Below, piece by piece: positions 4,304 through 15,181 of a stretch of DNA of 64,000 nucleotides; positions within the stretch are counted from its first letter, which is position 1, and each line of letters opens with the position of its first letter. The stretch is from assembly GCF_988242995.1 (NCBI RefSeq), contig NZ_OZ547043.1; one strand, 5' to 3'. The notes under the pieces are model-generated. The model made no database searches. It was not told the DNA's origin and saw nothing but the letters and a program-made list of their open reading frames with translations. A program made the position numbers and the translations under genes.

Positions 4304-5482
4304 ATGAGTAATATTGTTTACCTGACAGTAACGGGAGAACAACAAGGAAGCATCTCCGCAGGTTGTGGGACTTCTGAGTCTACAGGTAATCGCTGGCAGA
4401 GCGGGCATGAGGATGAAATATTTACATTCTCATTCTTAAATAGTATTACTAATACGGGGCTTGGTTCACAGTTCCATGGTATAACATTTTGTAAATTAAT
4501 TGATAAAAGCACTCCATTATTTATTAATTCCATTAACAATAATGAACAATTATTTATGGAATTTGACTTCTATCGAATAAATAGATTTGGTAGATGGGAA
4601 AAGTATTATTATATACAACTAAGAGGCGCTTTTTTATCGGCTATTCATCATCAGATCATTGAAAATCAACTGGATACAGAAACATTAACTGTTAGTTATG
4701 AATTTATCCTCTGTCAACATCTTATCGCAAATACCGAGTTCAGCTATTTGGCACTCCCTGAAAATTATAACTGTTTGTTTTTACCAAATTCAAAAAACCA
4801 AACAAATAATCGTTTCAAAACGTTAAACAGCAAAGCTATTGGCAGGCTACTTGCTGCTGGTGGCGTATACAATGGGAACATTGAAGGATTCAGAGATACT
4901 GCGGAAAAACTGGGTGGAGATGCAATAAAAGGCTATGATCAAATACTAAATGAAAAAACAGCGGGCATAGCGATAGCAACAGCATCTATTCTTTTAACAA
5001 AGCGTTCTAATGTTGATACATATACAGAAATAAATAGTTACTTAGGCAAACTTAGAGGTCAACAAAAACTTCTTGATGGTATAGACATAATAGAAACAAT
5101 ATACATTAAGAGACCTTCAAAAGACTTAGCTAACTTACGAAAGGAGTTTAATAAAACTGTAAGAAAAAATTTTCTTATCAAACTTGCAAAAACCTCCGAA
5201 GCATCTGAAAGATTCAACGCCGAAGACCTTTTAAGAATGAGAAAGGGCAATGTTCCTCTAAATTATAATGTTCACCATAAACTATCTCTAGATGATGGTG
5301 GTACTAATGATTTCGAAAATTTAGTATTAATCGAAAACGAACCATATCATAAAGTTTTTACTAACATGCAATCACGAATAGCTAAGGGAGTATTAGTAGG
5401 TGAAAGCAAAATCACTCCCTGGGCCATTCCATCTGGCTCAATTTATCCTCCCATGAAAAATATTATGGAACCCACAAAATGA
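4304..5482 (+). CDS. yhhZ: Hcp-like protein fused to a C-terminal HNH/colicin-DNase-type nuclease domain (polymorphic toxin)
   Basis: 392 aa; N-terminal Hcp-like segments (FTF, IDKSTP, FYR); C-terminal HNH motif VHHKLSLDDGGTNDFENLVLIENEPYHKVF resembling colicin E9 DNase; AT-rich. Confidence 0.85.
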   Translation: MSNIVYLTVTGEQQGSISAGCGTSESTGNRWQSGHEDEIFTFSFLNSITNTGLGSQFHGITFCKLIDKSTPLFINSINNNEQLFMEFDFYRINRFGRWEKYYYIQLRGAFLSAIHHQIIENQLDTETLTVSYEFILCQHLIANTEFSYLALPENYNCLFLPNSKNQTNNRFKTLNSKAIGRLLAAGGVYNGNIEGFRDTAEKLGGDAIKGYDQILNEKTAGIAIATASILLTKRSNVDTYTEINSYLGKLRGQQKLLDGIDIIETIYIKRPSKDLANLRKEFNKTVRKNFLIKLAKTSEASERFNAEDLLRMRKGNVPLNYNVHHKLSLDDGGTNDFENLVLIENEPYHKVFTNMQSRIAKGVLVGESKITPWAIPSGSIYPPMKNIMEPTK

Positions 5483-5973
5483 TGACTAAAACCCAAATAA
5501 ATAAATTAAAAAAAATGATGAATGATTTAGACTATCCATTTGAAGCACCGCTCAAGGAATCATTTATTGAAAGTATAATCCAAATAGAATTTAATTCTAA
5601 TTCAACTAATTGCCTGGAGAAATTATGTAATGAAGTTAGTATTCTTTTTAATAATCAACCTGATTATCTTAATTTTTTAAGAGCAATGGATGGATTCGAA
5701 GTTAATGGATTACGATTATTTAGCCTCTCGATTCCAGAACCTTCAGTTAAAAACCTTTTTACCGTAAATGAATTTTATAGAAATAATGATGATTTCATAA
5801 ACCCTGATCTACAAGAACGGTTAGTGATCGGGGATGATAGCATTTCAATATTTACTTATGACATTAAAAGTAACTTTTTTGAAATTAGAGATAATATTGG
5901 CACCGAAAATATATTCAGTTCGTTTAGTGATTTCTCTTCATTCTTAAACGAAATCATGGACAGTTGTTCATAA
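5479..5973 (+). CDS. yrhA: putative cognate immunity protein of the YhhZ nuclease toxin
   Basis: 164 aa ORF whose ATG overlaps the yhhZ stop (ATGA); AT-rich; position matches K-12 yrhA, but here uninterrupted. Confidence 0.7.
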   Translation: MMTKTQINKLKKMMNDLDYPFEAPLKESFIESIIQIEFNSNSTNCLEKLCNEVSILFNNQPDYLNFLRAMDGFEVNGLRLFSLSIPEPSVKNLFTVNEFYRNNDDFINPDLQERLVIGDDSISIFTYDIKSNFFEIRDNIGTENIFSSFSDFSSFLNEIMDSCS

Positions 5974-6744: not shown

Positions 6745-8490
6745 TTAATAACCCGCCGTTAAATCATCCACCGAGCGCGGATCGGATGCGCCGTACAACT
6801 CGCCGTCCGGCCCAACCATAATGCTTTGTGTACTACCCATCGCCTCTTTCAGCGCCACTTTCTGACCTTTTGCTTCCAGCAGCTTGAGCGTATCCGGGCT
6901 AAACCCTTTTTCGACACGCAGCTCGTCCGGCAACCACTGATGGTGGAAACGCGGTGCATTGGTCGCTTCGGCGACATTCATACCATAATCGATGCTGTTC
7001 ACCACCATTTGCAGCACGGTAGTGATGATCCGGCTACCGCCTGGGCTACCAGTCACTAACCAGGTTTTACCGTCTTTCACCACAATGGTTGGGGACATCG
7101 ACGACAGCGGGCGTTTATTCGGCCCGACCGCGTTGGCGTCACCACCCACCAGCCCGTAAACGTTCGGTACGCCAGGTTTGGCGGAGAAATCATCCATCTG
7201 GTTATTAAGCAGAATACCGCTCTCGCCCGCGACAATGCCCGTCCCGAAGGTGGTGTTCAGCGTATAGGTCACCGCTACCGCGTTGCCGTCTTTATCCACC
7301 ACTGAGTAATGGGTAGTTTGATTACTCTCATAAGGCGCAAGCTTGCCGGGGCGAATTTCGCTGGATGGCTTCGCTTTATTGATATCGATTTGATCGGCAA
7401 TAGATTTGGCATAGGCTTTATTGGTCAGCGCCTGCCACGGAACTTTGACAAAATCCGGGTCGCCAAGATATTCCGAGCGGTCGGCGTAGGCATATTTCTC
7501 AGCTTCTGCCATGATTTGCATCGCGTCGGCGCTGCCAAAGCCGTATTTCTTCATATCGAAGTTTTCCAGAATATTGAGGATTTGTACGATATGGATCCCG
7601 CCGGAAGATGGCGGTGGCATGGAGTAAACCTGATACCCGCGATAATCGCCGCTAATCGGTGTACGTTCGACCGCTTTATACGCCGCTAAATCTTCTTTAG
7701 TGATCAAGCCACCGTTTTTCTGCATCTCCTGAGCGATCTGCTCCGCTATTGTGCCTTTGTAGAATTCGTCCGGGCCGTTTTCGGCAATCATCTCCAGGCT
7801 CTTTGCCAGGTTCGCCTGCACCAGCTTGTCGCCCTTTTTCAGCGGCGCGCCCTCTTTCCAGAAGATAGCCTTGCTGTTTTCGTGATTCGGCAACACTTCG
7901 CTACCGTAGGTTTTGAGATCGTCAGCCAGCGCGTCATTAACGATAAAACCATCGCGTGCCAGTTTAAACGCCGGCTGCACCACTTTATTTAACGGCATGG
8001 TGCCGTACTTCTCCAGCGCCAGCGAGAAACCTGCGACCGTACCTGGCGTACCGGAGGCCAGATGCGAAGTGAGTGATTTTTTGCTGTCCGGGTTGCCCTG
8101 GTCATCGAGGAACATATCGCGGGTCGCTTTGGCGGGTGCCATTTCGCGGAAATCGATAGCGGTGGTATTGCCATTTTTCGAGCGGATCAGCATAAAACCA
8201 CCACCGCCCAGATTCCCTGCCTGCGGATGCGTTACCGCCAGCGCGTAGCCCACCGCCACGGCGGCATCAACGGCATTCCCGCCCTCCTTTAGAATATCTA
8301 CCCCCACCTGAGTGGCAGTAGCATCTACAGACGCCACCATCCCCTGTTTCGCGCGTACCGGATGAAAGACATCTTCCTCCACGCCGTAAGAAACAGGAGA
8401 CGGCGCAGGTGGCGCGGCTACCGTACTAAAACAACTTCCTGTGAACAGAGCAGCAATGGCCACCCGGCGTAAAAACGTCGGTTTTATCAT
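6745..8490 (-). CDS. ggt: gamma-glutamyltranspeptidase
   Basis: Start refined to MIKPTFLRR (signal peptide) within ORF 6745-8517; 581 aa; conserved catalytic Thr region (NQTTHYSVVD) and GGG motifs. Confidence 0.95.
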   Translation of the reverse strand: MIKPTFLRRVAIAALFTGSCFSTVAAPPAPSPVSYGVEEDVFHPVRAKQGMVASVDATATQVGVDILKEGGNAVDAAVAVGYALAVTHPQAGNLGGGGFMLIRSKNGNTTAIDFREMAPAKATRDMFLDDQGNPDSKKSLTSHLASGTPGTVAGFSLALEKYGTMPLNKVVQPAFKLARDGFIVNDALADDLKTYGSEVLPNHENSKAIFWKEGAPLKKGDKLVQANLAKSLEMIAENGPDEFYKGTIAEQIAQEMQKNGGLITKEDLAAYKAVERTPISGDYRGYQVYSMPPPSSGGIHIVQILNILENFDMKKYGFGSADAMQIMAEAEKYAYADRSEYLGDPDFVKVPWQALTNKAYAKSIADQIDINKAKPSSEIRPGKLAPYESNQTTHYSVVDKDGNAVAVTYTLNTTFGTGIVAGESGILLNNQMDDFSAKPGVPNVYGLVGGDANAVGPNKRPLSSMSPTIVVKDGKTWLVTGSPGGSRIITTVLQMVVNSIDYGMNVAEATNAPRFHHQWLPDELRVEKGFSPDTLKLLEAKGQKVALKEAMGSTQSIMVGPDGELYGASDPRSVDDLTAGY

Positions 8491-8609
8491 CGTTATTCTC
8501 CAGAGATTAAGGGGCAACCCCAGCTAAGCCTGGTATATAACTCTGAATTAATCATCGTTTTGCCGGGAAGCGAGTAAACTTAAAGGATATCTTCAGAGGA
8601 GGATACGCG

Positions 8610-9050
8610 ATGAAACGACTTCTGATTCTTACGGCACTCCTGCCGTTTGTCGGCTTTGCACAGCCCATTAATACTCTGAACAACCCCAACCAGCCGGGAT
8701 ATCAGATCCCCAGTCAGCAGCGGATGCAAACCCAAATGCAAACGCAGCAAATCCAGCAAAAAGGGATGCTGAATCAGCAACTGAAAACGCAAACTCAGTT
8801 GCAACAGCAGCATTTAGAAAACCAGATCAACAATAATTCTCAGCGGGTGTTGCAGTCACAGCCGGGGGAGCGAAATCCCGCCCGGCAGCAAATGCTGCCC
8901 AACACCAACGGCGGGATGTTAAACAGCAACCGTAATCCGGATAGTTCGTTGAATCAGCAGCATATGCTGCCGGAGAGGAGAAACGGCGACATGCTGAATC
9001 AGCCCAGCACGCCGCAGCCTGACATTCCGTTGAAAACTATTGGGCCGTAA
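8610..9050 (+). CDS. yhhA: secreted Gln-rich low-complexity protein
   Basis: 146 aa; N-terminal signal peptide ([17 protein letters not shown]) followed by Q-rich repeats ([12 protein letters not shown]); good SD (GGAGGA) upstream. Confidence 0.8.
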
Positions 9051-9780
9051 AGTTCGGACCAATCACGTCAATCGCATCGGTGCAGATGCAATCCACGCCC
9101 CAGCGCAGCAACTCTGCCGCGCGCTGGGGTTTATTGACGGTATAAACCAGAATCCGTAATCCGGCGTCTTTCAACTGCATCACTCGCGCTTTATCAAGCA
9201 ACTTATGATTGAGATGAATAGAGACGCAGCCCAGCCGCGCGGTCAGTTCTCGCCAGTCGTCGCGCCACTCATCAAGCAATAAACCGCGCGGCAGTTCTGG
9301 TACTGCTTGTTGCGCGGCTTCTAAAGCATCAATCTCAAACGATGACAGCAGCGGCGGCGTCATTCCGGCCCACAGTTCGCGTGCCGCCAGCGCCACCATT
9401 TTGCCCGTTAATGGCCCGGTGCCAGTGGTGGGTTTGATTTCGATATTCGCCATCATCCCGTGTTCGCGACAGCGTTCCGCCACCTGCGAAAGCAACGGTA
9501 GCGGCTCACCTTTAAACGCTTTGCTGTACCAACTGCCTGCATCCACGCGCAGTAAATCCTGCCAGTTCAGATCGCCCGCGACGCCCCAGCCGTTGCTGGT
9601 GCGTTCAAGATTGTCGTCATGGAGCAGGAAGATCTCGCCATCTTTCGATAACTTCGCGTCAAATTCGATCATCTTATGACCGTATTTTGCCCCGACGTCG
9701 ATTGCTGCCAGGGTGTTCTCCGGGGCCAGCTTACCGCCGCCACGATGAGCGACGATGCGGGGATAAGGCCAGTTACTCAT
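9037..9780 (-). CDS. ugpQ: glycerophosphodiester phosphodiesterase (cytoplasmic)
   Basis: 247 aa, GDPD-family motifs ([17 protein letters not shown]); last gene of ugp operon. Confidence 0.95.
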
Positions 9781-14410: not shown

Positions 14411-14467
14411 TTACATTTGTCACCTGTCTCAAAGGAGTCTTTTGACTCCTTATCAATCAACGTGTTA

Positions 14468-15181
14468 TTACCCGCCTAAATACGCACTTCTCACCGCTTC
14501 ATTCGCCAGCAGCGTATCGCCGGTATCGGAGAGCACAACATGGCCGTTTTCCAGCACGTAGCCGCGATCCGCCAGCTTTAGCGCCTGGTTGGCGTTCTGC
14601 TCGACGAGGAAGATGGTCATCCCCTGCTCGCGCAGCTGCTCGATGGTGTCGAAAATCTGCTGGATGATAATCGGCGCAAGACCGAGCGATGGCTCATCAA
14701 GCAACAATAAACGCGGGTTGCTCATCAGCGCGCGACCAATCGCCAGCATCTGCTGCTCACCGCCGGACATGGTGCCCGCCCGCTGAACACGGCGTTCATG
14801 GAGACGCGGAAACAGTTCATACACCCACTTTATGCGTTCCTGGAACTGGTCACGTTCAGCAAAAAAACCGCCCATCGCCAGGTTCTCTTCCACCGTCATC
14901 CGCGAGAAAACACGACGCCCTTCCGGGACAATCGCCACCGCTTCGCGCATGATTTTCGCCGTCTGCCAGTCGGTAATGTCTTTATCATCAAACACAATTC
15001 GCCCGCTGGTGGCGCGTGGGTCGCCGCATAACGTGCCGAGCAAGGTGGTTTTCCCCGCGCCGTTCGCGCCAATGAGGGTGACAATCTCGCCCTGATTGAT
15101 ATGCAGGCTCACCTCATGCAGCGCCTGGATTTTGCCGTAGTGGGCGCAGACTTTGTCAAAGGACAACATGACTTTTTCCAT
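14468..15181 (-). CDS. livF: branched-chain amino acid ABC transporter ATP-binding protein
   Basis: Start refined to MEKVMLSFDKV; Walker A GANGAGKTT; 237 aa. Confidence 0.95.
   Translation of the reverse strand: MEKVMLSFDKVCAHYGKIQALHEVSLHINQGEIVTLIGANGAGKTTLLGTLCGDPRATSGRIVFDDKDITDWQTAKIMREAVAIVPEGRRVFSRMTVEENLAMGGFFAERDQFQERIKWVYELFPRLHERRVQRAGTMSGGEQQMLAIGRALMSNPRLLLLDEPSLGLAPIIIQQIFDTIEQLREQGMTIFLVEQNANQALKLADRGYVLENGHVVLSDTGDTLLANEAVRSAYLGG

Follow-up and report, generated by a model that had tools for sequence, protein, structure and literature searches.

On balance, YhhA is probably a stationary-phase stress protein of the periplasm, which is exported by the Sec route and acts by specific binding of a partner in the envelope. 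The gene, yhhA, is a remaining uncharacterized "y-gene" of Escherichia coli. Virtually all strains carry it, it forms part of the general stress regulon, and its product is abundant in envelope extracts. What the present analysis adds is that this "low-complexity" protein is under strong position-specific and length-specific constraint, which provides a handle for experiments. The question can now be put in a testable form: which periplasmic partner, in the stationary phase, binds the helix of fixed length and the four conserved Met-Leu motifs of the protein. Neither the sequence, the distribution, nor the context of the gene supports "type III effector," the sole function attributed to its product in the literature.

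Gene, family, and neighborhood

The window analyzed here is a stretch of 64,000 nucleotides. The ORF at positions 8610..9050 on the plus strand begins with ATG and consists of 146 codons and a stop codon, encoding a protein of 146 amino acids. The name yhhA and the extent assigned to it by the first-pass annotation were correct, as judged by reading of the ORF and by the matches to the family HMMs. The Pfam family DUF2756 (PF10956) matched over its entire profile (positions 1–105 of 105) with an E value of 1.1e-60 and 202.9 bits (cut-off, 21), and the NCBIfam equivalog PRK10350 matched at positions 1–145 of 145 with an E value of 1.5e-79 and 265 bits (cut-off, 136). Pfam and NCBIfam gave no second family for YhhA, the next Pfam match being noise (E = 0.12). 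The DNA is 100% identical to that of E. coli strain NRZ14408, in which it is annotated as yhhA in RefSeq, and it encodes the allele WP_000825996.1, which is the common one in E. coli. The family hallmark, an N-terminal signal followed by NPSQQR...QPG around a 50-residue Gln-rich segment, is present. From its sequence, the YhhA of the window is a typical member of DUF2756/PRK10350 and shows no departure from the family.

Of 5426 complete E. coli genomes, 5424 contain a match to yhhA, which in every case is chromosomal and lies between ggt and ugpQ. The DUF2756 family is tiny: 467 proteins were found at E ≤ 0.001 among the 5.8 billion entries of a large protein database, and an exhaustive profile search of 1.84 billion proteins gave 79 cluster representatives. 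The latter search for distant relatives returned nothing beyond DUF2756 proteins and their fragments. The family is restricted to Enterobacteriaceae, where it covers some two dozen genera, apart from a set of short forms; among these, the only one that could be assigned belongs to Erwinia. A profile search of the PDB with YhhA gave nothing meaningful (E = 0.8), and there is no solved DUF2756 structure. PADLOC had no match at the locus. The gene yhhA is known and already annotated in E. coli, and it is a genuine, expressed member of the core genome of Enterobacteriaceae. Its family has no assigned function, and in the literature mentioning yhhA, no function has been assigned by any experiment. 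On the opposite strand, a Leu-rich ORF of 77 amino acids (8580..8813) is the mirror image of the CAG and CAA codons; it was rejected because selection acts on the plus-strand frame, as judged by dN/dS.

The features of the locus are listed in Table 1. Of 80 species loci, 78 have ggt upstream of yhhA and 79 have ugpQ downstream. Distant short homologues also keep the convergent position next to ugpQ; at the locus of one of them, a pirin gene replaces ggt upstream. In Citrobacter and other genera, the coding regions of yhhA and ugpQ do not overlap, and YhhA is still retained.

Table 1 Features in and around yhhA (positions in the window)
Feature	Position	Strand	Basis or remark
ggt, periplasmic γ-glutamyltransferase	6745..8490	−	Divergent from yhhA; 119-nt spacer between
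Intergenic block TAAGCCTGGT	8525..8534		Invariant or nearly so in 18 genera (T48–T57 of the first sequence of the alignment)
Intergenic block AATCATCGT	8550..8558		C76 invariant; T78, G80, and T81 at least 90% (18 genera)
Candidate yhhA −10 element, TAAACT then TAA (TAAACTTAA)	8575..8583	+	27 nt upstream of ATG
Shine–Dalgarno sequence, GGAGGA	8598..8603	+	6 nt before ATG; GGAGG in nearly all genera
Predicted Sec-type signal peptide, residues 1–17	8610..8660	+	Kyte–Doolittle profile; invariant A17-Q18-P19
Mature N-terminal cap, residues 18–33	8661..8708	+	Alignment and AlphaFold2 (AF2); invariant NNPN, predicted coil
Predicted Gln-rich helix, residues 34–83	8709..8858	+	AF2 and fixed spacing; conserved family core
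Predicted disordered Pro/Asn/Gln-rich tail, residues 84–146 (63 amino acids)	8859..9047	+	pLDDT < 50; motifs
Terminator-like hairpin for the ugp operon	8976..9015	−	Within the 3′ end of yhhA, 22 nt past the ugpQ stop codon
ugpQ	9037..9780	−	Convergent with yhhA; 3′ coding ends overlap by 14 nt
Probable intrinsic terminator of yhhA	9097..9135	+	GC-rich hairpin then UUUAUU; within the ugpQ coding region (opposite strand)

The spacer between ggt and yhhA was footprinted using an alignment of 18 genera. The block TAAGCCTGGT is a candidate for a site of a shared regulator or for an element of the ggt promoter. The block AATCATCGT sits approximately where a −35 element would be placed relative to the candidate −10 element of yhhA, and it is unlike TTGACA. 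In the TAAACTTAA element, T98, A99, A101, C102, T103, and A105 are invariant in the 18 genera. A −10 element followed by TAA is the form favored by σS promoters. A scan for σ70 promoters upstream of yhhA found none because no good −35 element is present. Downstream of the gene, the hairpin of the probable yhhA terminator has a calculated RNA folding energy of −26.5 kcal/mol (z = −3.0), and none of 200 shuffled sequences was as stable. The terminator scan missed this hairpin because its apical part exceeds the loop limit of the scan. The terminator-like hairpin of the ugp operon forms 13 pairs in the scan (−23.3 kcal/mol, z = −2.7) and is followed by a weak U-tract.

Architecture and conservation of YhhA

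The signal peptide was assigned by rule, using the n-, h-, and c-regions and the residues at −3 and −1. The n-region is M-K-R, the h-region is a hydrophobic stretch of 13 residues from L4 to F16 with Pro12, and the c-region is G15-F16-A17. Small residues occupy the −3 and −1 positions, and cleavage is predicted between A17 and Q18. The A17-Q18-P19 segment is invariant in an alignment of 30 diverse homologues. YhhA contains no Cys and is therefore not a lipoprotein, and it lacks the RR pair, so it is not a Tat substrate. The signal peptide proposed in the first-pass annotation is thus borne out as a tripartite sequence with a rule-predicted and conserved cleavage site.

The mature protein of 129 amino acids is highly hydrophilic (GRAVY, −1.39) and basic (pI ~10.4), with one aromatic residue and no Cys. 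Gln accounts for 29 of the 129 residues (22%; P = 3.6e-13 against a background of 4.4%) and Asn for 18 (14%; P = 3e-6). The sum of the two reaches 36%, compared with a maximum of 14% in the 57 long ORFs of the window. The Pro content is 11%, and there are only two His residues. Seven of the 129 residues are Met, and this enrichment is not significant (P = 0.07). The protein had been described at first as rich in Gln, Asn, and Met; this holds for Gln and Asn but not for Met. Six of the seven Met positions are nevertheless invariant or nearly so among the 30 homologues. Hydrophilins, which are LEA-like proteins, are defined as highly hydrophilic and as having more than 6% Gly. The Gly content of YhhA is 5.5%, below that value, though its hydrophilicity is high, and no 11-mer periodicity of the LEA type stood out in the sequence.

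The sequence had also been called repetitive, which applies in a loose sense. Tandem Repeats Finder (TRF) with a minimum score of 30 detected no tandem repeat in yhhA. The longest run of identical codons is two, and the CAA (9) and CAG (20) codons are interleaved. What does recur are short motifs, namely MQTQ (twice) and x-M-L-N/P (five times), and one degenerate duplication of 24–25 amino acids in the tail, where the direct repeats D1–D3 are spaced by 72–75 nt. The direct repeats in the gene are only 11–17 nt long and scattered.

AF2 prediction with the 30-sequence alignment gave a single helix of 50 residues, from 34 to 83, with moderate confidence (pLDDT 70–82). This segment contains 19 Gln residues and is bounded by P34 and P85. 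Outside the helix, the pLDDT was below 50–60; for residues 84–146, it was below 50, and the overall pTM was 0.22. In the charge–hydropathy analysis, the mean hydropathy of 0.344 against a boundary of 0.424 places YhhA on the unfolded side. The tail carries conserved short motifs (G-M-L and H-M-L), a motif ending in (D/S)ML, and a conserved C terminus. The intrinsic disorder suggested in the first-pass annotation is accordingly consistent with the charge–hydropathy value, the tail, and the low pTM for the protein overall, but not with the predicted helix at residues 34–83. YhhA may be best described, in part from these models, as a largely disordered protein with one long, possibly conditional helix.

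The periodicity of hydrophobic residues in the helix was examined using an alignment-averaged periodogram. Peaks appeared at ~5.05 and 2.15 residues, with no coiled-coil or amphipathic signal, and the power at 3.4–3.8 residues was not above that of permutations (1319 of 5000, P = 0.26). Because the hydrophobic residues recur every ~5 residues, not every 3.6, the helix has no obvious binding face. A canonical coiled coil or amphipathic helix was rejected, as the 3.5–3.67-residue periodicity is absent. When two copies of the helix connected by a 30-residue linker were modeled by AF2 with a paired alignment, the confidence was lower (pLDDT 62–70, pTM 0.35); this is a weak test, and contacts were not reported.

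The amino acid sequence of YhhA is under strong purifying selection. Among four E. coli alleles of yhhA, dN/dS was 0–0.09 at dS values of 0.09–0.18, and one allele pair differed by eight synonymous and no nonsynonymous substitutions. Approximately 30 columns are invariant across the alignment of the 30 diverse homologues; they include NNPN, Q37-R38, M43, K51-G52-M53-L54, Q65-Q67, H118-M119-L120, and M128-L129.

The length of the helix is likewise conserved. At 70 of 80 species-representative loci, the PSQQR-to-QP distance equals exactly 50 residues; an insertion of three to four residues near the C-terminal end of the helix distinguishes the remaining 10, which come from Buttiauxella, Dryocola, Cedecea, and relatives. 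The total length of YhhA varies from 121 to 181 amino acids across the 80 species loci, mainly in the tail. In E. albertii, one copy of the 24-amino acid tail repeat has been lost, and this loss is fixed. Short homologues of 87–103 amino acids, including that of Erwinia psidii, are ~35% identical to YhhA, keep the 50-residue spacing, and end right after the helix, so that the tail is absent from these Erwinia-type proteins. Therefore, the helix represents the ancestral core of DUF2756, to which the tail was added in Enterobacteriaceae. A fixed helix length could stem from something other than the binding of a partner.

Within E. coli, 5422 of 5424 complete genomes contain 80% or more of the 144-nt segment that encodes the helix. 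In a set of 60 evenly sampled genomes, the segment was ungapped in 59, the exception being a truncated allele of strain A16. The variation of repeat number across strains, which the first-pass annotation had proposed to examine, is therefore not seen. In-frame deletion and duplication alleles of the helix (96–165 amino acids) are numerous in the large protein database, with breakpoints at the short repeats. They are mostly singletons from draft or metagenome assemblies; the alleles P0002, P0022, and P0026 were each found on five to seven contigs. The existence of these rare alleles indicates that a change in helix length is not lethal. Variation of the helix length in E. coli is therefore rare noise and not a feature of the protein. 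A contingency protein with variable repeats was also considered and rejected, as TRF detected no array and the helix length is essentially invariant in complete genomes. The initial picture of a featureless low-complexity protein is contradicted by the predicted 50-residue helix, the low dN/dS, and the fixed helix length.

Expression, localization, and proposed function

Transcript and protein of yhhA have been reported repeatedly. The gene has been named as a member of the RpoS regulon and is induced by a cold downshift (PMC4057180). A binding site of the RpoS holoenzyme was found by SELEX within the spacer between ggt and yhhA (PMC5493296), and yhhA is induced along with rpoS at a growth transition (PMC2241611). 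The transcript also increases after acid treatment (PMC2270276, PMC7824302), under several stresses (PMC9501238), and by 5.6- to 9.9-fold under lipoprotein-trafficking stress from an inhibitor of LolCDE (PMC5105897). The protein was observed by mass spectrometry in Salmonella (PMC4265081) and in extended-spectrum β-lactamase–producing E. coli, where it rose 1.7- to 3.1-fold under a β-lactam (PMC9927464). In a surface extract of Shiga toxin–producing E. coli, YhhA was among the 15 most abundant proteins; HdeB, Ivy, YmgD, ZraP, and PsiF were also found in this extract, which was crude and contained cytoplasmic proteins as well (PMC9731836). Absence of a predicted cleavage site and absence of expression had been named beforehand as grounds for doubt, and neither was encountered. 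The initial assignment of YhhA as an exported protein is supported by the conserved signal peptide and by its presence in envelope-type extracts (PMC9731836).

Here, we propose a function of YhhA based on these observations. According to the literature, yhhA is part of the RpoS general-stress regulon, and its expression rises on entry into the stationary phase. After Sec-dependent export and cleavage between A17 and Q18, the protein would accumulate in the periplasm when cells are stressed or stationary. There, it may bind a specific envelope partner via the fixed-length helix and the short linear motifs of the tail. YhhA would thus be a binder or protectant of the stress phase, not a hydrophilic filler with a passive role or a protein with variable repeats. 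Specific binding is preferred to the filler role because the sequence, the motif positions, and the helix length are conserved, whereas composition alone requires none of these. A more elaborate version of this proposal, to which we give a low probability, is that DUF2756 represents a class of its own among the periplasmic stress proteins of enterobacteria, in which the helix of exactly 50 residues (~7.5 nm) docks onto or measures an envelope structure of fixed size in the stationary phase, such as a coiled-coil lipoprotein or a periplasm-spanning element, while the G-M-L and H-M-L motifs of the tail serve a second partner.

Several other explanations have to be weighed against a stress-phase binder. 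The strict conservation of the helix length across divergent sequences could be read as the mark of a ruler in a self-assembling protein, that is, a Gln/Asn-rich polar-zipper coiled coil, amyloid, or condensate that serves as a structural element or spacer in the periplasm, and the Q+N content of 36% and the abundance of YhhA in envelope extracts (PMC9731836) would fit this idea. We consider self-assembly rather unlikely, as neither heptad nor hendecad periodicity of hydrophobic residues is present, the linked two-helix model lowered the AF2 confidence (a weak test), and the high Pro content and the predicted helix-plus-coil structure speak against a curli-like β-amyloid. A periplasmic sponge for Cu(I) or Ag(I), or a methionine-based oxidant sink, of the SilE/PcoE type would have a similar layout, a signal peptide followed by ~130 disordered and helix-prone residues. 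The near invariance of six mature Met residues and of His118, beside Met119, is in line with such a role, as is MQTQM, an MxxxM pair on one face of the helix. This role seems quite improbable to us: Met is not enriched, YhhA has only two His residues and no HxxM, MxxH, MxM, or MxxM motif, metal regulation of yhhA is not reported in the literature searched, and the expression follows RpoS, not CusRS or CueR.

It is very improbable that the protein itself is of little import, with the locus working mainly through its RNA, as an antisense partner ("excludon") convergent with the ugp operon, or with the ORF being a tolerated low-complexity passenger. The overlapping 3′ ends of yhhA and ugpQ, the terminator-like hairpin of each gene within the coding region of the other, and the inclusion of the pair among RNA-seq-defined convergent excludons (PMC12288877) agree with such an arrangement. 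However, the low dN/dS with many synonymous differences points to selection on the amino acid sequence, invariant residues occur along the whole of YhhA and not just in the overlap, YhhA has been identified by mass spectrometry (PMC4265081, PMC9927464, PMC9731836), and Citrobacter and others keep YhhA in the absence of a coding overlap. According to the last explanation, attaching-effacing E. coli would use YhhA as a type III secretion effector, with its SQ/TQ and QS/QT clusters mimicking host ATM/ATR substrates. This idea derives from a preprint that calls enteropathogenic E. coli (EPEC) YhhA (UniProt B7UKZ9) an "experimentally validated effector," citing SecretEPDB, and notes conserved S/TQ sites in the protein (bioRxiv 10.1101/364117). 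A primary experimental source for this label was not found in literature searches on B7UKZ9 and the EPEC secretome, and SQ/TQ dipeptides are expected by chance at a Gln content of 22%. The conserved, predicted cleavable Sec-type signal would route the protein to the periplasm, not to the type III secretion system. Moreover, the gene occurs regardless of pathotype in 5424 of 5426 E. coli genomes, and also in Erwinia and in about two dozen genera of Enterobacteriaceae, and it resides at the housekeeping ggt/ugpQ locus, never in a pathogenicity island. The effector role is therefore hardly credible.

Comparison with known systems

YhhA resembles type III effectors in being disordered and rich in SQ/TQ; it differs from them in its Sec signal, its occurrence throughout Enterobacteriaceae including lineages that lack a type III secretion system, and its housekeeping context. 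The curli protein CsgA is built of imperfect β-strand repeats, and Q-rich polar-zipper coiled coils show heptad periodicity. YhhA shares with them its predicted export and its richness in Gln and Asn, but it has no imperfect β-strand repeats and no heptad periodicity, and a helix and coil with 11% Pro are predicted instead. SilE and PcoE are disordered periplasmic proteins rich in Met and His, which gain helix on metal binding and carry HxxM/MxxH motifs. In layout, YhhA is similar to them in its signal peptide, its ~130 disordered, helix-prone residues, and its conserved Met and His, whereas the HxxM/MxxH motifs are absent, Met is not enriched, and metal-responsive regulation is unreported.

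Asr, HdeA/B, Spy/CpxP/ZraP, OsmY, and YmgD are small, Sec-exported, stress-induced periplasmic proteins of enterobacteria, and they are basic and partly or conditionally disordered. In the Pfam and NCBIfam searches, no sequence relationship of YhhA to Asr or the other periplasmic stress proteins and no match to the LTXXQ family were detected, and YhhA is rich in Gln and Asn, in contrast to the Lys/His/Ala-rich stress proteins of the Asr type. In its other properties, YhhA is like the members of this group: it is small, predicted to be Sec-exported, stress-induced, basic, and partly disordered. It is, like Asr, restricted to enterobacteria, and it was co-extracted with HdeB, ZraP, and YmgD (PMC9731836).

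Lineage of the window and its annotated features

Over positions 8400–9200 (801 nt), at least 99% identity to the window was found in only 3 of 5424 genomes, the majority being 95 to 99% identical, and the window therefore comes from an uncommon E. coli lineage. It matches strain NRZ14408, a wound-swab isolate, at 100%. Despite the uncommon DNA, the encoded YhhA is the common allele WP_000825996.1.

Features in the window and their coordinates
Feature	Position	Strand	Remark
Hcp1-family (tssD) gene, then frameshifted yrhA	~4305–5973	+	upstream of ggt; NRZ14408 annotation
Spacer block TAAGCCTGGT	8525–8534		invariant or near-invariant in 18 genera
Spacer block AATCATCGT	8550–8558		invariant or near-invariant in 18 genera
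Leu-rich ORF, 77 aa	8580–8813	−	opposite yhhA's Gln-rich stretch, in antisense
yhhA codon 97 (Pro97)	8898–8900	+	site of C290T
Tetratricopeptide-repeat protein gene	~14430–15176	−	ugpB/livF interval; NRZ14408 annotation

The antisense ORF was rejected as a gene, since its CTG and TTG codons are the mirror of CAG and CAA in the plus frame, on which selection acts. The two conserved blocks in the ggt/yhhA spacer matched no assignable promoter consensus; they may form part of the ggt promoter or a site for a shared regulator.

Exceptions to the conserved gene order

An upstream ggt was absent from only two of the 80 species loci compared, namely those of Escherichia sp. MOD1-EC7003 (L008), in which ugpQ is reduced to a 52-residue piece, and Intestinirhabdus alba (L084), which also lacks ugpQ. 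A further locus (L045; CACSKA010000004.1), titled "Chryseobacterium sp. 18061", carries a ggt-yhhA-ugpQ-ugpC block typical of Enterobacteriaceae, the proteins of which are 86 to 90% identical to those of E. coli. The record has probably been assigned to the wrong organism, or else its assembly contains contaminating sequence.

Length and substitution alleles of yhhA

Rare in-frame length alleles of the predicted Gln-rich helix of YhhA (residues 34–83) occur in database proteins P0001–P0035, P0051, P0083, P0092, and P0107. They comprise deletions of 3 to 50 aa and duplications of 9 to 29 aa, and their breakpoints fall in short repeats of Gln codons. One E. coli protein of 163 aa, for instance, has a 17-aa duplication, and a 167-aa protein from a Salmonella enterica assembly has a 29-aa tandem duplication. 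Because most of these alleles are singletons and several derive from metagenome assemblies, some may be assembly artefacts.

The only truncated allele among the complete genomes sampled is that of E. coli strain A16, isolated from an otter (NZ_CP028758.1; locus L001, 1705–2521). The 3' part of yhhA is deleted beyond residue 69, and the same deletion removes the 3' end of ugpQ, so that the two convergent genes are fused; RefSeq annotates both as pseudogenes.

A substitution is present in C41(DE3), a strain used for membrane-protein overexpression, which has yhhA C290T (Pro to Leu) and whose reporters deemed the change irrelevant (PMC4632034). The affected residue is the proline of the near-invariant L-P-N motif.
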